Of a DNA stretch of 40,133 bases, positions 2,686 to 34,875 are shown in pieces. The translations under genes and the position numbers were made by a program. Every line of letters starts with the position of its first letter. Within the stretch, counting starts at the first letter, position 1. Below the pieces are notes generated by a model. That model was not told the DNA's origin. It did not search any database and saw only the letters and a program-made list of their open reading frames with translations. This stretch comes from an uncultured Candidatus Saccharibacteria bacterium (GTDB taxonomy: Bacteria; Patescibacteriota; Minisyncoccia; Phycocordibacterales; WO2-35-19): contig CAZAXK010000004.1 in NCBI GenBank assembly GCA_964489135.1, positions 1 to 40,133 of the forward strand, in the 5' to 3' direction.

Positions 2686-2716
2686 TGGAATATCTTTATA
2701 AGTGACAATTATCACT

Positions 2717-3214
2717 ATGAGTATTGTTATGGATATTTTGGAGCTAGCGTGGAATACAAAACTGAATTACAAGGGTATTCCAGTTAACCTATTTGGGGTT
2801 CCGAGGCTTCGAGCCGGCAAAAAGCCCTGCTCACAAACAACCTTTAACAGAACAGTACTAAGAATGAAGACAAAAGGATACTTGGAGATCATTGACGATA
2901 GATGGCAACTCACAGAATACGGTAAGAAATTCTATGAGAACCGCCAAAAATTGAGAACCAGATTTAGTTCCCCTTTTCCACCCAATGCGACAAAAAATCT
3001 TCTCGTCATATTCGACATTCCTGAAACTAAAAGAAACGAGAGAAATTGGTTACGGTGGCATCTAAAGAATTTTCAATACATTATGCTCCAACAAAGCGTT
3101 TGGCTAGGTCCGAGTCCACTACCAACCAAATTTCGAGAACACCTGAAGAATTTTAAGCTAGACAAATGTATAAAAACTTTCAAGCTCGCCAAGCCTTACC
3201 AATCCAAGGGTTAA
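2717..3214 (+). CDS. PaaX-like protein: N-terminal winged-helix plus Cas2/VapD-like ferredoxin-fold domain
   Basis: wHTH-like TFNRTVLRMKTKGYLEIIDDRWQLTEYGKK, then LLVIFDIPETKRNERNWLRWHLKNFQYIMLQQSVW (Cas2-like FDIP...QxSV). Alternative GTG start at 2702. Confidence 0.8.
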   Translation: MSIVMDILELAWNTKLNYKGIPVNLFGVPRLRAGKKPCSQTTFNRTVLRMKTKGYLEIIDDRWQLTEYGKKFYENRQKLRTRFSSPFPPNATKNLLVIFDIPETKRNERNWLRWHLKNFQYIMLQQSVWLGPSPLPTKFREHLKNFKLDKCIKTFKLAKPYQSKG

Positions 3215-3248
3215 TGCGACAAATCTGACGGCCGTCAGATTTGTCGCA
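3215..3248. repeat. Perfect 34-bp palindrome, copy 2 (begins at the first base after the stop codon)
   Basis: TGCGACAAATCTGACGG|CCGTCAGATTTGTCGCA, exact reverse-complement symmetry. Confidence 0.95.
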
Positions 3249-3267
3249 AAATGATCAACATAAAAAA

Positions 3268-4428
3268 TTAAAACAAATTTTTGATGTCTTTGAAGGTGAT
3301 GATGATCATGAGCCCAACGAGGACAGCGAAGCCGATGCCGTTTGCATAGGAGCCAAATTTGGCAGGAATCTTTTTGCGAGTAATCGCCTCGATCGCGACG
3401 AAGACCAGCCGGCCACCGTCGAGCGCTGGAAAAGGAAGAAGGTTAACAACGGCCAAGTTGATCGAGATAAGTGCGGTAAAGGTCAAAAGATAAGCAAGAC
3501 CAAGGCGCGATGCATCACCCACTAGGCCCACTATTCCGATCGGTCCGGTAACTTGTGAAAGATCGGCTGATCCGGTAAAGGCCCCTCCTATAAGCCCGAG
3601 TATCCCAGTAACTGTGAGATAGGTGAGCTTGAGGGTTACTCTCCCACCTTCGACAAAGGCCTGGTGTACAGGCAAAGACAGAGTACCTACCATATCCATA
3701 TTGATACCAACTATCTTCCTACCCTCCATAAGAGCAGCGTCTGGCAGAAGCGAAAAGTCGTGTTCTTTACCACCCCTATTAACTTGCATATTTATTTGCT
3801 GCGATGAGCCAGAAATAAAATCCGAAACGGCCTCTGGCTCGAGATCGCGCAGTACCGCACCCCCACTTTCAACCGAAAGTATTTTGTCACCAGACTTGAG
3901 CCCCGCATTACTTGCCGGAGAATTAGGCAAGACGGCGACTATGGTAAGAGCGGGATCCTTTACTTCATAACCATAATCATTTTGGACAGGAGTCGGAAGC
4001 CCAGAAACAAACCCGATCGAGAATAGAAGCCAGGCAAAAAGAAAATTGAAGAGCACTCCGGCAAAGAGAATCACCGCCTGCCAAATTTTGGAGACTTGTG
4101 TAAAGCTCCTACCAGTCGGAGAAAGTTCTGTGACAAAAGTCTGGTTGAGCCGCGAAGCAGGCGACCCGAGGACTTTTGGAGCAGGACCTTTTTCCGACTG
4201 AATTTCGGCGTCATAGTTCTCGCCAAAGATTTTGACGAAACCGCCAAAGGGAATCCAGTTTAACGAAAACTTAGTACCCCACTTTTCCCCCAGTGTTACG
4301 GCGCGGGGCGGATAGCCGAAACCAAACTCCTCTACCCTTACTCCAGCTTTCTTGGCAAAAATAAAATGCCCGAGTTCGTGTACCAGTACCAGAACACCGA
4401 GGATAACTATAAAAATTATGAGGGTCAT
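3268..4428 (-). CDS. rseP: Site-2 intramembrane zinc metalloprotease RseP (M50) with PDZ domain
   Basis: HELGH, NWIPFGGFV, AGVLFNF, PDZ (SPASNAGLKSGDKI), NLLPFPALDGG; TGATG overlap with frr. Confidence 0.95.
   Translation of the reverse strand: MTLIIFIVILGVLVLVHELGHFIFAKKAGVRVEEFGFGYPPRAVTLGEKWGTKFSLNWIPFGGFVKIFGENYDAEIQSEKGPAPKVLGSPASRLNQTFVTELSPTGRSFTQVSKIWQAVILFAGVLFNFLFAWLLFSIGFVSGLPTPVQNDYGYEVKDPALTIVAVLPNSPASNAGLKSGDKILSVESGGAVLRDLEPEAVSDFISGSSQQINMQVNRGGKEHDFSLLPDAALMEGRKIVGINMDMVGTLSLPVHQAFVEGGRVTLKLTYLTVTGILGLIGGAFTGSADLSQVTGPIGIVGLVGDASRLGLAYLLTFTALISINLAVVNLLPFPALDGGRLVFVAIEAITRKKIPAKFGSYANGIGFAVLVGLMIIITFKDIKNLF
4122..4191. repeat. Palindromic element inside the rseP coding sequence, frame preserved
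   Basis: caaaagtc (4134-4141) and gacttttg (4171-4178) are a perfect inverted repeat with imperfect outer and inner stems; encodes KGPAPKVLGSPASRLNQTFVTEL. Confidence 0.6.
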
Positions 4429-4996: not shown

Positions 4997-5647
4997 TCAG
5001 ATCGAGGAGGCAAGCCACTCGAGAAGCATCTTTGGGGACGACCCACGGGCTGAAACCAAGCGCTTAGCAATAAGAACCTTCTTCAAAAGTCGATAGTTCC
5101 TAGGTACGGAAGCTTCTTCTGGCAAAGTCCAAATTGCCTCACGCAAGGAATCCTTGTCTTTTTCAGCCGATAATTTTTTTATAAAATTCATTTTTTCAGC
5201 AAGCGGCAATTTAAGAAAATTATTCTTTACAGTCGAGACAGTGTCGCCGATACCCTCATACACTCTCACCCGCGAAAGAACGGTGCCGAGTAACCCCCCT
5301 CCGCTCGGCAAAATTACAAAAAAGTAAGTACCAAGCGTCGGCTCTTCGAACACCTTTAGAAGTGCGTTCTGCGCCTCATGGGTGATGGAATCGGCAATTA
5401 TTATGGCAACTTTTCTCACACCCGCGATGGGCTTGTTGATTGCCCACCTCGAAAGTTCGCGGGCCTCATCTATGCCAAAGGTGTTACTATTCATTTCCAA
5501 AAAATCCGGATTGGCTTTCACTACAAAACCCGCCCGACCAAGAATTTCTTTCAACTCTTGAATCTCGCTTACCCCGCCCCAAACAAAATTGGCGTGGTGC
5601 AGTTTATCAAATCCACCGCTTTCCATTTTGAAATTTTGATTTGGCAT
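4997..5647 (-). CDS. DNA polymerase III delta'-like clamp-loader subunit (short form)
   Basis: FGIDEAREL, KVAIIIADSITHEAQNALLKVFEEP, TYFFVI, TVLSR. Confidence 0.8.
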   Translation of the reverse strand: MPNQNFKMESGGFDKLHHANFVWGGVSEIQELKEILGRAGFVVKANPDFLEMNSNTFGIDEARELSRWAINKPIAGVRKVAIIIADSITHEAQNALLKVFEEPTLGTYFFVILPSGGGLLGTVLSRVRVYEGIGDTVSTVKNNFLKLPLAEKMNFIKKLSAEKDKDSLREAIWTLPEEASVPRNYRLLKKVLIAKRLVSARGSSPKMLLEWLASSI

Positions 5648-5653
5648 TTAGTG

Positions 5654-6667
5654 TTATCTCTTAGCGACCGACATGCGCTTGTAGGCATCGAGATGCTCGA
5701 GCGCCACCCCAGTACCCTTGACCACGCAGTACAACGACTCTTTAGCCAGAATGGCCTTCACTCCGATACGGCGCAACACTAGCTCCGGAAAATTGCGCAG
5801 ATTGGAAGTACCGCCGGTCATAATTATACCTTGGTCGATAATATCTGAAGCAAGCTCAGGGGGTGTTTCTTGCAAAACATCTTTCATGGCTTTGATCATT
5901 TCGCGCAGGTCCTTCGATATCGCCTTTACTATTTCGTTGGTTTTTATCTCCACTGATCGTGGTAAGCCAGTAACAAGATCTCTGCCCTTAACTTCCATCG
6001 CGAGTTCTTCATCAAGTGGCAAAGCTGAGCCAATTTTTATCTTTACGTCTTCGGCCATCTTGTCACCGATCGCTAGGTTGAAAGTTTTCTTTACATAATC
6101 CGCGATCGACTGATCAATGCGGTTACCGGCACACTTGACAGAGGTCGAGGATACTATCCCGCCAAGCGAGATAACAGCGACGTCTGTCGTGCCTCCACCA
6201 ATATCAGCGATCATATGCCCTTTGGCTTCATATATAGGAATACCGGCGCCGATCGCAGCGAGTATCGGTTCCTTGATAACGTAAGCGTTGCGTGCGCCGG
6301 CCTTGATTGCCGCCTCGATCACAGCCCGTCGCTCGGTCGATGTTACTCCCGCCGGCACCGATATAAGCACCTCTGGTCGCAAGAAGTTCATCTTACCCAT
6401 CGATTTGCGTATATAATACCGAAGCATCGCCTCAGTAACTTTATAATCGGCAATAACGCCGTCTTTCATTGGCCGATAAGCAATTATGGCTTCGGGGGTG
6501 CGACCGATCATGGTCTTTGCATCATTGCCCACCGCCAAAATGCGGTTGTCTTCTACCGAAACTGCAACAACGGAGGGTTCATTCAGCACAATCCCCTTCC
6601 CGGGCATAAAGACGAGAGTGTTCGCCGTCCCCAAATCGATACCCAGCTTTTTTGAGAGAAAAGACAT
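5654..6667 (-). CDS. mreB: MreB/Mbl actin-like protein (copy 2)
   Basis: LGIDLGTANT, RPMKDGVIAD, VPAGVTSTERRA, EPILAAIGAG, DIGGGTTD; start trimmed to MSFL. Confidence 0.95.
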   Translation of the reverse strand: MSFLSKKLGIDLGTANTLVFMPGKGIVLNEPSVVAVSVEDNRILAVGNDAKTMIGRTPEAIIAYRPMKDGVIADYKVTEAMLRYYIRKSMGKMNFLRPEVLISVPAGVTSTERRAVIEAAIKAGARNAYVIKEPILAAIGAGIPIYEAKGHMIADIGGGTTDVAVISLGGIVSSTSVKCAGNRIDQSIADYVKKTFNLAIGDKMAEDVKIKIGSALPLDEELAMEVKGRDLVTGLPRSVEIKTNEIVKAISKDLREMIKAMKDVLQETPPELASDIIDQGIIMTGGTSNLRNFPELVLRRIGVKAILAKESLYCVVKGTGVALEHLDAYKRMSVAKR

Positions 6668-16205: not shown

Positions 16206-17429
16206 TCAATTATACCCCAAGTATTTTTCGAGTGCGAGAATAGCACTCTCGGCACTCTCCGCATTCATGAGCTCTTCTTTCAAATCGTGGACATCGGGTA
16301 GACCAGAAAGATAAGACTTGAAATGCTTCTTCATCACCGCAAAGCTTTTTACTTTACCGAGGTTTTGGTCAAAGAGTTTGATGTGGGCAAGAAGGGCCTT
16401 GAGTTTCAGTTGTGGATCGATATTATCCGACTTCGCTAAAAGCTTCGCCGGATGCTCAATTTGGCTACTCTGCTTTGCAGTGGCCAAATTGGCGAACAAA
16501 AAGGGGTTGCCAAATATCGCGCGGCCGAGCATCACCCCATCACAGCCAGTTGCTTCAGCTTTGGCATAGGCATCGGCCACACTGTCAACATCGCCATTGC
16601 CGAAGATCAAAGTAGCCCCTCCCCCTACCCCCTCCCCAAAAGGGAGGGTATTTCGAATCTCAACCGCTTCCTTGATCCTTTCCCACCGCGCCGGCACCTT
16701 GGACATCTCCTTGCGTGTGCGGGCATGGATGGTGATGACCGCTGGCTCTTCGGCCAAAAGCTCTGGTAACCACCCGCCCATAGTTCCATCTGGTCGGGCA
16801 GGCCCTTCTAGCTCATCTTTGTTGTAGCCAAGACGGGTTTTTACCGACACAGGTATCGCTTCTTTTCCCTGCTCCTTTGCATACTCTTCTACTCCCTCTT
16901 TGGCTGCACGTATCACTTCCCTTGCGAGCCGCGGATTTTTGATCATCGCCGCACCCGCGCCCTGCTTCTCGATACTTTTGTCCGGACAACCCATGTTGAT
17001 ATCGAGCCCATCGAACCCCAAGCTCGCGACGAGATACGCTGCCTTGCGCATATTCTCCGGTCGAGAACCGAAAAGCTGGGCCACGATCGGCCTCTCAATT
17101 TCGCTGTATTCCAAATCTTTGAGCAACTTTTTCTTGCCTTCCTCGTGCGCAAGCACCAACCCGTCGGCACTGACAAATTCCGTCCACGTGACATAACTAT
17201 TAATACGTTCTCGAGATACTTCTCCGAGCGGGCCTTGCGCAGGCCGACTGGGCCGAGCAGAGGAATTTTCTAGCAAGAAAATATCCGTGCCAAGCGAGGA
17301 GAACGTATCGAGAGAATTATTAGAGCAACTCGCGATGACACGCCTGAAGGCCGAGTCGGTAACGTCGGCCATCGGTGCAAGACAAAGTATCGGCTTTTCT
17401 ATTTTTGACCAAAATCCTAAATTAACCAT
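16206..17429 (-). CDS. dus: tRNA-dihydrouridine synthase (Dus family) carrying four repeat-derived insertions
   Basis: LAPMADVTD, TEFVSADGL, AQLFGS, DINMGCP, PVSVKTRLG, TIHART, GNGDV, DGVMLGRA, MKKHFKSY. Confidence 0.95.
   Translation of the reverse strand: MVNLGFWSKIEKPILCLAPMADVTDSAFRRVIASCSNNSLDTFSSLGTDIFLLENSSARPSRPAQGPLGEVSRERINSYVTWTEFVSADGLVLAHEEGKKKLLKDLEYSEIERPIVAQLFGSRPENMRKAAYLVASLGFDGLDINMGCPDKSIEKQGAGAAMIKNPRLAREVIRAAKEGVEEYAKEQGKEAIPVSVKTRLGYNKDELEGPARPDGTMGGWLPELLAEEPAVITIHARTRKEMSKVPARWERIKEAVEIRNTLPFGEGVGGGATLIFGNGDVDSVADAYAKAEATGCDGVMLGRAIFGNPFLFANLATAKQSSQIEHPAKLLAKSDNIDPQLKLKALLAHIKLFDQNLGKVKSFAVMKKHFKSYLSGLPDVHDLKEELMNAESAESAILALEKYLGYN
16425..16453. repeat. REP-like insert 4 in dus
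   Basis: Minus strand atccggcgaagcttttagcgaagtcggat (HPAKLLAKSD); resembles 13938-13965. Confidence 0.65.
16616..16648. repeat. REP-like insert 3 in dus (C-rich/G-rich hairpin type)
   Basis: cccctccccctaccccctccccaaaagggaggg (LPFGEGVGGG); resembles the dprA insert at 23332-23365. Confidence 0.7.
16773..16802. repeat. REP-like insert 2 in dus (30 bp)
   Basis: Minus strand cctgcccgaccagatggaactatgggcggg (PARPDGTMG); same ends as 13612-13646. Confidence 0.7.
17203..17308. mobile_element. MITE-like element insert 1 in dus
   Basis: 10-bp perfect inverted arms atacgttctc/gagaacgtat; 31-bp core 17260-17290 identical to 30823-30853. Confidence 0.75.
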
Positions 17430-22656: not shown

Positions 22657-23562
22657 ATGTCTTATAAAATAGAGACGCTAAATAAACCCGACTGGCCTCC
22701 TCTCCTCGCTCAAATACCTGATCCGCCAAAAAAGCTTTGCTTCGCGGGCCAAGTACCTGATTATGAAAGAAAATTTCTTTGCGTCGTCGGTTCGCGCAAA
22801 TATTCTGGCTATGGCAAAGAAGCCACGAGTGCGCTTATCGCCGACCTGCGTGGATTCCCCATAACGATCGTGTCTGGGCTCGCACTCGGCATCGACTCAA
22901 TCGCTCACCGTCTTGCGATACAAAACAACTTGCCTACGATCGCCGTGCCTGGGAGTGGGCTCTCACCAAACGTTCTCCACCCCGCAAGTCATGCACAACT
23001 CGCCGAAGAAATAGTCGAGAGCGGAGGCACTCTTCTCTCCGAATATGAGCCCGACTTCAAGGCGACCCAATGGAGCTTCCCTCAGCGCAACCGCATCATG
23101 GCCGGCATGTGCGACGCCACTCTTATAATAGAAGCTGAGCAAAAGTCGGGCACCATGATTACAGCCAAGCTCACCACCGAATACAACCGAGAATTGCTCT
23201 GCGTTCCCGGAAGCATATTCAACCCGATGTCGGAGGGGCCTAATATGTTCCTGCGACTCGGGGCGACATTGGTGCGAAGCGGAGATGATATTTTGGAAGC
23301 ATTGGGAGTGGGGAAATTGGATTTCCCCACAACCCCACCCCTTACCCCTCCCCAAAGGGGAGGGGCTCAAGCCACCCACACCGACTGTTCGGAGAAAGAA
23401 TTGCTAATCTTGCAATTGCTCGAGAGTCCAAAAGAAAAGAGCGAGTTGATAAGAGAAGCGAGCGCACAAAATCTTTCAATTTCCGAAATCCAGACCACCC
23501 TTACCCTCCTCGAACTCAAGGGGCATATCGAAGAAAAGCTTGGGCAGATACGACGCACATAA
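22657..23562 (+). CDS. dprA: DNA processing protein DprA
   Basis: VVGSRK, IVSGLALGIDSIAH, FPQRNRIMAG, SGTMITA, VPGSIF, C-terminal winged helix. Confidence 0.96.
   Translation: MSYKIETLNKPDWPPLLAQIPDPPKKLCFAGQVPDYERKFLCVVGSRKYSGYGKEATSALIADLRGFPITIVSGLALGIDSIAHRLAIQNNLPTIAVPGSGLSPNVLHPASHAQLAEEIVESGGTLLSEYEPDFKATQWSFPQRNRIMAGMCDATLIIEAEQKSGTMITAKLTTEYNRELLCVPGSIFNPMSEGPNMFLRLGATLVRSGDDILEALGVGKLDFPTTPPLTPPQRGGAQATHTDCSEKELLILQLLESPKEKSELIREASAQNLSISEIQTTLTLLELKGHIEEKLGQIRRT
23332..23365. repeat. REP-like hairpin inside the dprA linker
   Basis: cccctcccc-aaa-ggggagggg perfect 9-bp stem; encodes TPPLTPPQRGG. Confidence 0.7.
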
Positions 23563-29400: not shown

Positions 29401-29481
29401 TGCCGGAGGAGAGACTTGAACTCTCACCCCTTGCGAGACACGATTTTGAGTCGTGCGCGTCTACCATTCCGCCACTCCGGC
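29401..29481 (-). tRNA. tRNA-Leu(CAA)
   Basis: GCCGGAG/CTCCGGC acceptor, CACGA-CTCAAAA-TCGTG anticodon arm, long variable arm. Confidence 0.96.
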
Positions 29482-29483
29482 TT

Positions 29484-29549
29484 TGTCCCGCCATAGCCTT
29501 TTTTGCGACGGCGGACATGTCCCGCCAAAGCTTTATGCGTAGGCGGACA
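29484..29549. repeat. Two tandem REP-like palindromes just 5' of tRNA-Leu
   Basis: tgtcccgcc...ggcggaca twice (29484-29517, 29518-29549). Confidence 0.75.
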
Positions 29550-29609
29550 TAGTGTGGATTATATGGTAAATTAGCTAAAAATCAAAGTACTTGGTAGAAA
29601 TTATAACCG

Positions 29610-30518
29610 ATGCAAAAACCTAAAATCATTGTAATACTAGGGCCGACATCTAGCGGTAAAAGCGACTTGGCGGTAAAGCTCGCTCAAAAGTTTAACGGGG
29701 AAGTAATATCCGCTGACTCTAGGCAAGTATACAAGGGTCTCAATATTGGCACGGGCAAGATCACCAAAAAGGAAATGAAGGGGGTGAAGCATCATCTGCT
29801 CGATATCGCGAACCCACGCAAAAAATTTACCGTTTCCGATTTTGTGAAAGCGACAAATTCGACGGTCGTCAAAATTGTCGCCAGAGGTAAAATACCTATT
29901 CTCTGCGGAGGTACTGCATTTTATATCGACGCTCTGCTCGGCGATAGGCAGATCCCCGAGGTTCCGATAAATGAAAAGTTGCGGGCAAAGCTTGAAAGGA
30001 AAAGTGTCGAGGAACTTTTCGCTATACTTTCTGACCTCGATCCAGAGAGAGCTAAAAGCATCGATAGGCAAAATCCTAGGCGATTGGTGCGAGCTATTGA
30101 AATATGCAAAGCACTAGGAAGTGTCCCAAAACAAATCGCAAGTTCACAATCAGACTTTCGAAACAAATTCGAAATTCTCAAAATCGGAACTAAAATCGAC
30201 GAGGCGGAATTAAGAAATCGGATTAACAAAAGATTAGAAAAGAGACTCAAACAAGGAATGATCGCCGAAGCCAAAGGGCTTCATGCGCGAGGACTCACCT
30301 ATAAACGGATGCGTGAGCTAGGACTAGAGTACGGGGCTCTGGCTGATCTGCTAGAAAACAAAATAACCAAAGAGGAGATGGTCGCAAGATTGCAGAAAGA
30401 GATCTGGCACTACGCCAAGCGCCAGATGACTTGGTGGAAAAAAGACCAAGAAATTCTCTGGATCAAACCATCCCCCACCATCGCTTCCCAAATAATTAAA
30501 GAGTTTTTGCGAAGCTAA
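29610..30518 (+). CDS. miaA: tRNA dimethylallyltransferase
   Basis: ILGPTSSGKS, ISADSRQVY, HHLLD, GGTAFY, RRLVRAIE, YAKRQMTW. Confidence 0.97.
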   Translation: MQKPKIIVILGPTSSGKSDLAVKLAQKFNGEVISADSRQVYKGLNIGTGKITKKEMKGVKHHLLDIANPRKKFTVSDFVKATNSTVVKIVARGKIPILCGGTAFYIDALLGDRQIPEVPINEKLRAKLERKSVEELFAILSDLDPERAKSIDRQNPRRLVRAIEICKALGSVPKQIASSQSDFRNKFEILKIGTKIDEAELRNRINKRLEKRLKQGMIAEAKGLHARGLTYKRMRELGLEYGALADLLENKITKEEMVARLQKEIWHYAKRQMTWWKKDQEILWIKPSPTIASQIIKEFLRS

Positions 30519-30523
30519 CGAGA

Positions 30524-30676
30524 GCGGGCCCACGAGGATTCGGTCACGCATAATTTTCTGCTGAAAATTTGCTCGACCCCGGCTCGGCCCGTCGGCCTCC
30601 GCCTTTCTCATCCTCGTCAAACCACGCAATGATGCTTCGCGCAAATAGCTATTCAAAGCTATTTTTGCGAATCATT
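30524..30676 (-). mobile_element. tRNA-3'-associated miniature element (Trp copy) ending in a 19-bp direct repeat of the tRNA 3' end
   Basis: gcgggcccacgaggattcg at 30524-30542 and 30677-30695; inverted atcctcgt at 30610-30617; GCT-TTGAAT-AGC hairpin; core related to 17260-17290. Confidence 0.75.
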
Positions 30677-30677
30677 G

Positions 30678-30748
30678 CGGGCCCACGAGGATTCGAACCC
30701 CGGTCGCTCCTTTTGGAGAGGAGAATTCTACCACTGAACTATAGGCCC
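30678..30748 (-). tRNA. tRNA-Trp(CCA)
   Basis: GGGCCTA/TGGGCCC acceptor, CTCCT-CTCCAAA-AGGAG anticodon arm, G73; lies downstream of rpmG as in many bacteria. Confidence 0.95.
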
Positions 30749-30766
30749 AATACGTAAAATATACAC

Positions 30767-30880
30767 AAAAAAAATAGAATTGTCCTGTAAGCGAGCCTTG
30801 CGAGACTCGACGGAGCGAGCACGAGGAATTTTCTAGCAAGAAAATATCCGTGCGAGCGACAGGATAATTCTATTTTTTTG
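30767..30880. mobile_element. MITE-like element between rpmG and tRNA-Trp
   Basis: 21-bp inverted arms aaaaaaatagaattgtcctgt/acaggataattctattttttt with one mismatch; core 30823-30853 identical to the dus insert. Confidence 0.75.
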
Positions 30881-31025
30881 CTTCCTTAAACACCACTCGC
30901 TTGCGGAGCTTTTTGGAATACTTCTTGAGCTCGATTTTGCGCTCTACTTTGCGCTTATTCTTGCGTGTAAAATACACCTCGCCGGTGCCTTTATGAACCA
31001 ATCTGATAAGTTGATCTTGGGACAT
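30870..31025 (-). CDS. rpmG: 50S ribosomal protein L33 (Cys-free type)
   Basis: MSQDQLIRL...GEVYFTRKNKRKVERKIELKKYSKKLRKRVVFKEAKK. Confidence 0.92.
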   Translation of the reverse strand: MSQDQLIRLVHKGTGEVYFTRKNKRKVERKIELKKYSKKLRKRVVFKEAKK

Positions 31026-31090
31026 GATTTTGAAATTAACCCCATATTTATAGCACACAAGCAAAAATGGTGCAATATCAAAAAAGTTAC

Positions 31091-33357: not shown

Positions 33358-34875
33358 TTATACACCGGTTATTTTCTCTATTCTCGCACCGATCGAGTTT
33401 AATCGTTCCACCACATCTTCATAACCGCGATTGATCGAGTAGACATTGCGTAGAATAGAAACACCCGACGCTTTGAGCATGGCAATAAGTATGATCATCG
33501 CTGGTCGCAGAGCCGGTGGGCAAACCAGCTGTGCTGGCTTGAGGCTGGTCGGGCCAGTCACAAAGACCCGATGTGGATCGGCCAGACTGATATTTGCCCC
33601 CAACCGATTGAGCTCGGTGAAGTATATGGCTCGATTCTCCCACATCCAGTCATGTATCAAAGTGGTGCCCTCGGCTTGAGTGGCGATCGGGACGAAGAAT
33701 GGCAGGTTGTCCGAATTGAGCCCTGGGTAAGGCAAAGGATGGATCTTGTCTTTGGAAGCGACGAACTTGGAGGGGAAAACGGTTATGTCGACGAGCTTGG
33801 TCTGCCCGTTTTCGGCCAAATACTCTTTGGACATTTTGTATTTTAGTCCCATGGTCTTGAGCTTCTGCATCTCCACGGCCAAAAAATCGATGGGGCACTT
33901 TTTTACCGTCAATTTGGAATTGGTAGTGATACCGGCCGATAAGAACATCATCGACTCGATCGGGTCCTCGCTATTGTGGTATTCGACGTCAGTATCGATC
34001 CGCCCGACACCATGGACTCGCAAGTTGGTCGTGCCGACACCTTCGATTTTGACCCCGAGTTTTTGCAAAAAGAAACACACCTCCTGAACCTGGTAATTGG
34101 GCGGGGCAAACCGAATCTCAGTTACCCCGGGCACCAAAGCAGCCATCATGATTGCATTCTCGGCTGCCGTGTCGCTCGCTTCGTACATTATTATATCGGC
34201 CGGTTTGAGCTTACCCACTGAAACCTCATAGCGATTGCCGGTCGTCTTGATCGACACACCTAAATCAGCAAACGCATGCCGGTGCGCCACGATCGTCCTC
34301 TCACCCATCTTGCAACCTCCCGAGTGAAGCAGAGCAAACTTGCCCAAATTGTGAACCATTGCCGGCAAGAGCATAAGACTCGAGCGGACGTTTGCCACGG
34401 ACGGGTGCAGTAATCCTTGCTTGTTGAATTTTTTTGGCGGAACAATCTCGAGCTTTTGTTTGTCGAGCCACCTGACCTTCACGCCGATTGCAGTGAGTAT
34501 CTCCATCATACGGTTAACCTCTTCGATGCGCGGTATACCAAGGAGGGTAGTCTTGCCCTGATTGAGTAACGAGGCGCACAAGAGACCCATCGCACCATTT
34601 TTGGAAGGATTGGTTGTAATAGAGCCCGAGAGCTTCCGACCACCCTCGATGCGAAAGTCGATTGAATCAGTAAGCGAGACGATCTTATGCTCAAGTGCAT
34701 CCCCGATCCGCAAAAGCTCGCTTGCCGTCAGGTTCTGCCGGCCCGCTTCGATGCGAGCAATCGTGCTTTGGGCGGTATTCAAGCGTAGGGCCAGCTCTTC
34801 TTGAGTAAGCAAGCGCTTTTCGCGCAACTTCTTTATAAACGCTCCGATCGCTTGTTGGTGGTCTGGTTTTTTCAT
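33358..34875 (-). CDS. murA: XRE-HTH fused UDP-N-acetylglucosamine 1-carboxyvinyltransferase
   Basis: N-terminal LREKRLLTQEELALRLNTAQSTIARIEAGRQN, then SKNGAM, GGCKMGER (catalytic Cys), EDPIE, PYPGL, INRGYE. Confidence 0.95.
   Translation of the reverse strand: MKKPDHQQAIGAFIKKLREKRLLTQEELALRLNTAQSTIARIEAGRQNLTASELLRIGDALEHKIVSLTDSIDFRIEGGRKLSGSITTNPSKNGAMGLLCASLLNQGKTTLLGIPRIEEVNRMMEILTAIGVKVRWLDKQKLEIVPPKKFNKQGLLHPSVANVRSSLMLLPAMVHNLGKFALLHSGGCKMGERTIVAHRHAFADLGVSIKTTGNRYEVSVGKLKPADIIMYEASDTAAENAIMMAALVPGVTEIRFAPPNYQVQEVCFFLQKLGVKIEGVGTTNLRVHGVGRIDTDVEYHNSEDPIESMMFLSAGITTNSKLTVKKCPIDFLAVEMQKLKTMGLKYKMSKEYLAENGQTKLVDITVFPSKFVASKDKIHPLPYPGLNSDNLPFFVPIATQAEGTTLIHDWMWENRAIYFTELNRLGANISLADPHRVFVTGPTSLKPAQLVCPPALRPAMIILIAMLKASGVSILRNVYSINRGYEDVVERLNSIGARIEKITGV

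Follow-up and report, generated by a model that had tools for sequence, protein, structure and literature searches.

The locus considered here raises a simple question: why should the 3′ end of an intact tRNA-Trp gene be found twice, separated by a short stretch of DNA that holds no gene? The duplication is situated in 40,133 nucleotides of DNA from an uncultured Candidatus Saccharibacteria bacterium (GenBank assembly GCA_964489135.1, contig CAZAXK010000004.1, positions 1 to 40,133 of the forward strand), the whole of which is referred to below as the window. An initial annotation, made from the letters of the DNA, described the region as a non-autonomous, att-like (attachment site-like) element that targets tRNA genes. 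The layout points to an undescribed miniature mobile element that enters tRNA genes without breaking them, and the best reading of the 134-bp interval between the repeat copies is that it represents one unit of a set of protein-less insertion modules, ∼130–176 bp in size, located at tRNA 3′ ends in Paceibacteria-type Patescibacteria.

The tRNA-Trp(cca) gene is intact and occupies positions 30678–30748 of the minus strand (ARAGORN; Rfam RF00005, 62.6 bits). Position 30677 encodes C74, and the complete CCA is not encoded. The 19-mer GCGGGCCCACGAGGATTCG occurs exactly at 30524–30542 and 30677–30695, with no third site within three mismatches anywhere in the window; the chance expectation is 0.01 matches and none of 100 shuffled sequences reached two, which bears out the exact duplication of the tRNA 3′ end claimed in the initial annotation. 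Read on the tRNA strand the repeat is CGAATCCTCGTGGGCCCGC, which starts with T-loop residues C56 to U60, continues through the 3′ halves of the T-stem and then the acceptor stem, and finishes with the discriminator G (30678) and C74 (30677). The proximal copy (30677–30695, minus strand), identified by sequence and repeat search and termed t1t2, is the real tRNA-Trp 3′ end from C56 to C74. The distal copy (30524–30542, minus strand), the first 8 nt of which constitute the right arm of a stem designated P1, begins 5 nt past the stop codon of miaA, at the position occupied by the real tRNA end in relatives. The two copies are separated by 134 bp, giving a unit of 153 bp without a real open reading frame (ORF). 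Contigs running from miaA through the distal copy into the following hairpin, the first of the insert, were found in SRR12762303 and SRR12762304, which are independent Logan assemblies, and each contig breaks within that hairpin. The proximal junction, at which the tRNA end runs into hairpin H1, was seen in one assembly only.

On the tRNA strand the insert starts with H1 (30626–30678, minus strand), a long hairpin starting directly from the end of the tRNA and delimited from sequence and folds. Its outer stem is formed by GCAATGAT and ATCATTGC, its inner stem by AAATAGCT and AGCTATTT, and its loop is TTGAAT; the nested hairpin described previously, with gcaatgat/atcattgc (30626–30633 with 30671–30678) enclosing AGCT-TTGAAT-AGCT, is present as described. 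The left arm of P1 (30610–30625, minus strand; also from sequence and folds) comes next and includes ACGAGGAT (30617 to 30610, minus strand), an exact inverted copy, t1′, of AUCCUCGU, i.e. of the T-loop plus the 3′ strand of the T-stem. The annotated inverted T-arm fragment was located, as atcctcgt, at 30610–30617. In GCGTGGTTTG the acceptor 3′ strand may recur in inverted, degenerate form, with G-U pairing possible. Beyond the left arm lies a structured core, here copy C of the AGCA type (30543–30609, minus strand), which consists of a GC-rich hairpin, P2 (GGCC GACG GGCC), and an AT-rich hairpin, P3 (30548–30572; 3 bp of GCA, a bulged A, a 7-bp stem and the loop AGCA), followed by GTGAC and the distal repeat. 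The predicted fold of 149 nt (−66.5 kcal/mol, z-score −5.8) combines H1 with a three-way junction closed by pairing of ACGAGGAT with AUCCUCGU. In this model P1, the stem that closes the core, is made from the distal repeat together with the inverted T-arm copy, and the att-like sequence would thereby be part of the folded structure. No intrinsic terminator was called in 30519–30676, and no T-run follows P1 of copy C.

The core belongs to a repeat family with two further copies in the window. Copy C was placed at 30541–30608 of the minus strand by nhmmer (E = 3e-13) and at 30529–30621 of the minus strand by a covariance model (58.7 bits), which bears out the earlier suggestion that the insert contains a reversed relative of a core found at dus and rpmG. 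The near-match to the dus copy noted at the time holds also, gctcggcccgtcggcct and AGGCCGACTGGGCCGAGC differing by a single indel. Copy A lies inside dus at 17193–17325 of the plus strand, antisense to the gene (covariance model 88.2 bits at 17215–17309), and is translated in frame, contributing ∼39–42 extra residues (..SLDTFSSLGTDIFLLENSSARPSRPAQGPLGEVSRERIN..) to the Dus protein from an insert of ∼117–126 nt. Comparison of the window protein with a solved Dus structure located ∼41 added residues between AFRRVIA.. and ..YVTWTEFVSADG. Among related proteins, which are given P-numbers of four digits, the peptide D-I/T-F/S-L-L-E/G/R-N-S was found at the copy A site in P0122 (93% identical) and P0129, and at another dus site in P0123 and P0126. 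The same core is therefore carried in frame at two distinct places in dus in different lineages, in addition to several intergenic spacers. Related loci and contigs fetched for comparison are numbered L001–L068; of these, L058 and L059 also carry the dus copy, the arms of which are altered in a compensatory way in L059. Any direct repeat flanking copy A amounts at most to a possible TAAT. As a separate observation, Dus proteins of this clade range from ∼320 to 458 residues (P0121–P0134; the window gene occupies 16206–17429), and an alignment of 12 of them revealed variable inserts at several sites, GPARPDGTMGG being an example.

Copy B (30768–30879, plus strand; covariance model 77.1 bits at 30777–30870) is located between the 5′ end of tRNA-Trp and the rpmG stop codon. 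It has 21-bp arms that are bordered by runs of A and of T; the last rpmG codons are overlapped by the right arm and a promoter-like sequence (−35 AGGACA, −10 TATATT) placed to start tRNA-Trp by the left arm, and the junction of copy B was confirmed in Logan contig L068. A copy in the same rpmG/tRNA-Trp spacer is kept across genera (L006 4039–4135, L008 5791–5887 and L014 6313–6399), whereas L003, L004, L009 and L032 have a plain terminator in its place, composed of an A-run, a hairpin and a T-run. Four Logan contigs from the organism of the window (L001, L002, L067 and L068) were observed to break off within P3 of copies C and B. With nhmmer and the covariance model combined, further members of the core family were detected in L006 (twice), L008, L014, L033 (twice), L045, L046 and L047. 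The tRNA-Trp unit of the window accordingly shares one core family with the gene-invading repeats, as had been proposed. Over 13 copies, 89.5% of the cells in the alignment are paired and 29 of 32 pairs have changed on both sides; none of 500 shuffles did as well, and sliding the partners reduced pairing to ∼45%. P3 is paired throughout (100%), with 8 of its 10 pairs covarying across the 13 copies. The closing stem P1 differs in sequence in every copy, and all 14 of its pairs covary. Template-switch correction of palindromes could mimic such covariation.

The occurrence of similar units behind other tRNA genes was examined by searching the DNA downstream of each tRNA, in all the loci fetched, for repeats of the 3′ end of that tRNA. 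The loci were fetched via miaA, as a consequence of which the ∼54 tRNAs surveyed are skewed to Leu(caa) and Trp, and comparisons throughout are with distant species or fragmented metagenome assemblies. Exact repeats of 19–23 nt were found behind tRNA-Leu in L015, tRNA-Leu and tRNA-Trp in L024, tRNA-Trp in L033 (two units), tRNA-Leu and tRNA-Trp in L042 (two units), and tRNA-Trp in the window, each matching the local tRNA; tRNA-Trp of L046 is followed by a 19-nt repeat with one mismatch. In total the layout was counted at 8 tRNA genes besides tRNA-Trp of the window. The repeats begin 18–20 nt before the discriminator end, at T-loop position 54–56, and stop 1 nt past the discriminator in 7 of 10 copies, with unit periods of 132–176 bp. 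H1 is present at the same position in every tRNA-linked unit, with a loop of CTGC or TTGAAT and covarying stems. Directly after H1, each unit has an 11–13-nt inverted copy of the T-loop and the 3′ strand of the T-stem, such as GGGAGAATCGAA for TTCGATTCTCCC at tRNA-Leu or TCGAGGAATCGAA at tRNA-Trp. This arm is a true reverse complement, rather than the T-stem 5′ strand of the tRNA with a duplicated loop, because AATCGAA differs from TTCGATT.

Units of this layout contain one of two unrelated core types. The AGCA type is present in the window tRNA-Trp unit, L046, L015, the second unit of L033, L043/L047 and L045, and the TGTAA type in L024, L042, the first unit of L033 and a decayed unit behind tRNA-Asn of the window. 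Neither type is confined to one tRNA, and L033 has both behind a single tRNA. A metagenome scan for the junction ACGAGGATTCGGTCAC..ATAA returned five loci, in which the constant right arm is partly a product of the search, the T-arm sequence having been held fixed in the pattern: L046 (tRNA-Trp, full layout), L044 (a remnant at tRNA-Trp of another allele), L043 and L047 (tRNA-Lys), and L045. The last of these has, at 9669–9939, a full t1′-core-t1t2 block with the 19-mer of the window, adjoining a 54-codon C-terminal fragment of miaA on a contig without a tRNA; possible origins are transport of a flank, rearrangement at the element and chimerism of the assembly. Degenerate units were recognised at tRNA-Lys (L043 and L047), tRNA-Trp (L044) and tRNA-Asn of the window. 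In the tRNA-Lys units (L043 823–958 and L047 1568–1702) the inverted arm fits the present tRNA and the distal copy reads CGAATCCTCGTGG, like a window-type tRNA-Trp; these strains have the P2 loop in opposite orientations (GTTCCAC vs GTGGAAC), as hairpin template switching predicts. The decayed TGTAA-type unit behind tRNA-Asn (13757–13935, plus strand; nhmmer E = 4.9e-9) begins with a plain hairpin, an inverted acceptor copy, GGCTCCTGCGGG (13805–13816), and H1 (13818–13841), the TTGAAT loop of which is that of the tRNA-Trp unit, and continues with t1′, TAGGATTCGAA (13844–13854), the core and a degenerate right arm, GAAATTCCTAC (13925–13935). Two of the four window tRNAs (Trp and Asn) therefore have units, the flanks of tRNA-Leu and tRNA-Tyr being plain. 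With the layout present also at tRNA-Leu and tRNA-Trp elsewhere, and in degenerate or decayed form at tRNA-Lys and tRNA-Asn, the interval is not the unique decayed remnant that would have spoken against the annotated reading. A third conserved structure, GC-rich and without a duplicated tRNA end (..GGCGAAGCCCGCC AGAAGGG AAGCGAAGGCGAC..), was observed in the tRNA-Trp trailers of L006 (∼3875–3937), L008 (∼5628–5690) and L061 (3660–3853).

Evidence that the units are insertions comes from relatives that lack them. In L004, L005, L007 and L009 the miaA stop codon is at most ∼12 bp from the tRNA-Trp 3′ end, and these empty sites, for which the initial annotation had suggested a search, identify the distal copy of the window as the ancestral position of the tRNA end. 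Arrays were also found. In L042, tRNA-Trp is followed by two units in tandem with three exact copies of TTCGATTCCTCGATCGCCCGC, compared with one unit in its relative L024, and in L033 tRNA-Trp is followed by one TGTAA-type and one AGCA-type unit with three exact copies of the tRNA end. When the empty sites, the arrays and the in-frame dus copies are taken together, it is close to certain that the modules have been copied repeatedly. The description of a non-autonomous element that targets tRNA genes consequently stood in part: the insertion is gene-less, recurs at other tRNAs and starts in the T-loop, but neither an integrase nor a Y1 transposase, the enzymes suggested as acting in trans, was found among the ∼38 ORFs of the window that were scanned.

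The mechanism favoured here is that of a protein-less miniature integrative module that is mobilised in trans and inserts at the tRNA T-loop, a proposal for which the chances of being right or wrong are judged to be evenly balanced. On the tRNA strand a unit would be read as the tRNA, a short flank, H1, t1′, the structured core and a second t1t2 extending from the T-loop to C74. The point of insertion would effectively be the T-loop, with the tRNA kept intact by the duplication of its 3′ part. The reaction envisaged is site-specific recombination of the T-loop class, catalysed in trans, with an attachment site presented as a folded single-strand hairpin, the t1′/t1 stem of which would reproduce the tRNA target; the core, beside the crossover, would serve as the part recognised by protein and as the 'loop' of the hairpin. 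Exchange in the T-loop with a folded single-strand circle would then yield the tRNA 5′ part, t1t2, flank, H1, t1′, core and the host t1t2, and the junction expected in such a circle is core ..GTGAC followed by CGAATCCTCGTGGGCCCGC and then AATGATTCGC. The position of the inverted arm, on the far side of the core, is the reason for inferring a folded hairpin as attachment site, by analogy with integron attC and CTX-phage attP, and this detail, taken alone, is proposed tentatively. A broader proposal, about as doubtful, is that the units represent a new class of ∼150-nt protein-less mobile elements that enter tRNA T-loops as a folded single strand or as their own trailer RNA. The closing stem would in that case be a programmable copy or guide of the target and the three-way-junction core a handle for a host or helper enzyme, and cores with other closing stems would invade protein genes in frame and occupy terminators; these extensions of the proposal are possible at best.

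Several observations weigh against a trans-mobilised module. No integrase (tyrosine or serine recombinase), transposase, HUH enzyme or reverse transcriptase was detected by Pfam in the ∼38 ORFs of the 40-kb window, and distant blastn searches against plasmid and phage records gave no match. Neither a copy of the tRNA end kilobases away nor a kilobase-scale version of the element, for which a search in relatives had been suggested, was found in ∼60 loci. Copies A and B have no flanking direct repeat. A double-stranded core of the attP type is absent, there being no arm resembling the T-stem 5′ strand directly beside the distal T-loop. Exchange of the 3′ part should render hopping between different tRNAs lethal, yet one core family is found at Trp, Leu and Lys. 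The simple model also leaves the distal copies of L043 and L047 unexplained, these being mismatched with the T-stem 5′ and acceptor 5′ strands of the present tRNA-Lys as well. No presence/absence polymorphism was obtained from close strains: the assembly of L058, with its 93%-identical Dus, is fragmented, confining comparison to the dus copy; L004, the closest aminotransferase contig, has an empty site but is distant; and seven contigs of one species (P0104) are mutually identical and have a different trailer. Finally, the tRNA-Leu units of L024 and L042 are identical at 114 of 115 nt from t1′ to the distal repeat, compared with ∼81% identity in coding DNA. The single difference follows a compensatory change in the acceptor stem of tRNA-Leu, and the flank and H1 diverge at approximately the background rate, the changes in H1 being compensatory. 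Conservation of this kind, comparable to that of a tRNA, looks like selection for function or continual resetting, as opposed to passive junk; possible explanations are selection as a folded single strand, retention of both tRNA ends in a functional state for excision, or resetting by conversion.

Of the alternatives to a mobile module, the one with most to commend it is that the insert is a structured RNA useful to the host, although this is considered unlikely. According to this explanation the insert is the co-transcribed trailer of tRNA-Trp, with H1, a three-way junction and a closing helix that imitates the T-arm/acceptor helix, and the duplicated tRNA end is needed for its function, whether this is to assist 3′ processing, to provide a stable RNA as by-product, or to insulate or terminate transcription where miaA and tRNA-Trp converge. 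The promoter-like site at tRNA-Trp implies that the trailer would be transcribed, and the tRNA-sense strand folds 3–20 kcal/mol better than the antisense strand in most units, including those of the AGCA type (−69.8 vs −59.7 kcal/mol in the window, −95.7 vs −76.1 in L015 and −73.5 vs −62.6 in L046). G-T pairs outnumber A-C mismatches by 24 to 10, compensatory changes in H1 and P1 separate orthologues, and the conserved tRNA-Leu modules of L024 and L042, in which the distal copy tracks a change in the acceptor stem, also fit such a role, as does the position of copy B, which resembles a bidirectional terminator, overlaps the promoter-like −35 box and is kept across genera. Conversely, the relatives with empty sites manage without a module, as do tRNA-Leu and tRNA-Tyr of the window; P1 of copy C is not followed by a U-tract; the acceptor-like partner for t2 is not conserved in TGTAA-type units; and the RNA corresponds to no Rfam family. 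Copies A and B are antisense to their host transcripts, one copy being in frame inside a protein, and covariation in DNA palindromes can arise by template-switch correction without selection on RNA. Furthermore, repeated gains at different tRNAs, and tandem arrays, would still require a copying mechanism. A further alternative, judged improbable, is that the module spreads not by recombination but by target-primed copying (retro-copying or copy-choice), in which the antisense strand is nicked at the T-loop, the DNA of the tRNA gene primes synthesis on trailer RNA or a single strand ending in t1t2, and synthesis, on reaching the tRNA end, switches back to the intact strand. The target would then be the source of both direct copies, much as in a long target-site duplication, and any tRNA would be left intact, which fits the presence of one core family at Trp, Leu and Lys. 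In 7 of 10 copies the repeat ends sharply 1 base past the discriminator, at the expected start of a processed trailer, and the left boundary varies (positions 54 to 56), both as this scheme would have them; in L024 the flank continues the exact repeat for 30 nt beyond the discriminator, in L033 copies two and three have the common flank CAT(G/A)ATATG, and the P2 loop inversion between L043 and L047 hints at template switching. Against this, the window has no reverse transcriptase, the match of t1′ to the local tRNA is not explained by the model itself, L043 shows the opposite of the foreign t1′ and local distal copy that are predicted, and a single-copy tRNA gene provides no empty target in the same cell.

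The remaining explanations are judged very improbable. An intact tRNA gene with a displaced direct 3′ fragment that starts in the T-loop is the classic signature of an island (PMC4383910), and the unit might be the scar of an ordinary kilobase-scale island or prophage in tRNA-Trp, reduced to two att sites and 134 bp. Independent deletions would not, however, leave the same size (132–176 bp) and the same order at at least nine tRNA genes in at least eight genomes. In addition, the core occurs away from tRNAs, there are no gene remnants and no larger version was found at any locus, leaving this explanation close to refuted. That the arrangement reflects a chance match or an assembly artefact is the least probable of all, to a degree that makes it negligible. 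Short-read graphs do break in these hairpins, and the segment in which the tRNA end runs into H1 rests on one assembly, but the shuffled sequences never held two matches, the distal junction is present in two independent assemblies, and unrelated assemblies from other species show the layout again.

A number of narrower candidates were considered and rejected. A retroviral-type primer-binding site is not indicated, since the plus strand lacks the TGG required to pair with CCA. A TnpB/IscB guide-RNA scaffold plus guide was set aside given that the core is only ∼65 nt in length and has no protein, and that the restored tRNA would itself be targeted. Plain insertion in the T-loop with a short duplication would have left a direct copy, whereas the left arm is the reverse complement. 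The GCGAAGC mini-hairpin is enriched (22 occurrences vs 8.7 expected), mostly in coding DNA, and is uninformative, and GAGCGRAGCGA showed no enrichment as a genome-wide motif. A search of viral contigs with the GGAGCGRAGCGAG pattern gave 10 matches, which are high-GC chance matches bearing no relation to the element; the P3 pattern had no match in viral contigs. Rfam identified only tRNA, both across the whole window at the gathering threshold and, with permissive E-values, at 30480–30900 and in seven related loci.

The window belongs to a Patescibacteria (CPR) genome of the Paceibacteria/Zambryskibacteria type. The local gene order is tRNA-Leu(caa) (29401–29481, minus strand), miaA (29610–30518, plus strand, stop codon 30516–30518), tRNA-Trp, rpmG (30870–31064, minus strand) and, beyond rpmG, a gene for a class IV aminotransferase, and a Pfam scan of the ∼38 window ORFs returned housekeeping genes only. 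The best matches to miaA among species-representative genomes are 67–69% identical and carry names of the Paceibacteria/Zambryskibacteria type; the closest among 5.8 billion proteins is 73% identical. Other repeats were recorded in passing. A second palindromic family, CCCTCCCCCTACCCCCTCCCCAAAAGGGAGGG, lies inside two ORFs, namely dus (16617–16648) and a DprA-like gene (23333–23364); the dus member, CCCTCCCC..GGGGAGGG, coincides with a Dus protein insert, ..PSPLQGEGAGGEV.., and sequence similar to this family is present in the tRNA-Trp/rpmG spacer of L003. A third palindromic repeat, GCGACAAATCTGACGGCCGTCAGATTTGTCGC, occurs at 2637–2668, 3215–3249 and 29852–29883, flanking both sides of a small PaaX/Cas2-like ORF (2702–3214) and lying once inside miaA. 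Two tandem hairpins, GTCCGCC..N16..GGCGGGAC, are located at 29485–29560, just upstream of tRNA-Leu, and a MurA-like protein with the EPSP synthase fold (33358–34875) has an N-terminal helix-turn-helix domain, which is an unusual fusion.

Units of ∼150 bp would be invisible to island finders because candidates smaller than 2 kb are discarded (PMC4383910), and full-text literature searches found no account of such units at tRNA ends. The family appears to use the T-loop geometry of islands without any genes, and its core is common to in-frame repeats of genome-reduced Patescibacteria. If mobile, the units would be among the smallest site-specific integrative elements and would provide a handle on the movement of palindromic repeats of the kind found in Rickettsia, which to our knowledge is still unexplained. 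If they are instead selected trailer RNAs, they would represent a new tRNA-linked RNA structure in an uncultivated phylum. In either case the hairpins break short-read assemblies at tRNA loci, which bears on the completeness of metagenome-assembled genomes.

Among known systems, the closest parallels in layout are with tRNA-integrating elements, whose integration keeps the tRNA gene intact and displaces a 3′ fragment, and which form tandem arrays and cross over at subsites in the anticodon loop, the T-loop or the T/acceptor junction (PMC4383910). Standard searches drop island candidates below 2 kb (PMC4383910), the Islander range being 2–200 kb. The modules are similar to such islands in having an intact tRNA and a cognate direct 3′ fragment, a start in the T-loop, tandem arrays and empty sites. 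They differ in size (132–176 bp, the window unit being 153 bp, vs 2–200 kb), in that they have neither an integrase nor any other gene between tRNA and fragment, and in having an inverted T-arm copy 65–90 nt away across a folded core as opposed to an attP-type core beside the distal T-loop. Cis-mobilizable elements (CIMEs) are att-flanked, gene-poor, kilobase-scale deletion derivatives of identifiable integrative and conjugative or integrative and mobilizable elements. The modules resemble CIMEs in being non-autonomous, with att-like bounds and presumably a recombinase in trans, but have no known parent element and possess a conserved architecture of their own.

The behaviour of the core family, by contrast, calls to mind that of repeats. 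Rickettsia palindromic elements (RPE) are palindromes of ∼100–150 bp, found in intergenic DNA, beside RNA genes and, by virtue of a stop-free frame, in frame within ORFs. The core family is likewise palindromic and present both in non-coding DNA and in frame in dus, a likeness of behaviour and not of homology; unlike in RPE, the closing arms are not conserved between copies, and the tRNA-linked copies carry a long tRNA-end repeat. Miniature inverted-repeat transposable elements (MITEs) are a poorer fit, as the P1 arms differ completely between copies, no related insertion sequence was found, and there is no short duplication of fixed length: the direct repeats are 19–49 nt in tRNA-linked copies, none is visible at copy B, and copy A has the possible TAAT. 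Integron attC and the CTX-phage attP used by XerCD are folded single-strand attachment sites. By analogy only, the unit shares with them a conserved secondary structure in which the stem sequence varies, an extrahelical base that is conserved (the bulged A of P3) and one inverted arm at one junction only, as a hairpin-bearing single-strand circle would leave; the target differs, being a tRNA T-arm and not attI or dif, and the unit is ∼150 nt in length without cargo. IS200/IS605 elements use a 4-nt guide and produce no target duplication. With these and palindrome-associated transposable elements (PATEs) the units have in common a small size, hairpins and an internal sequence that pairs with flanking or target DNA to define the site, though with an 8–13-nt complement and a 19–23-nt direct repeat, and no TnpA or TnpB was found. 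In sum, the module departs from both islands and MITEs in the features that define them, and is like a tRNA-integrating island reduced to its att region, with a tolerance for in-frame insertion of the RPE type.

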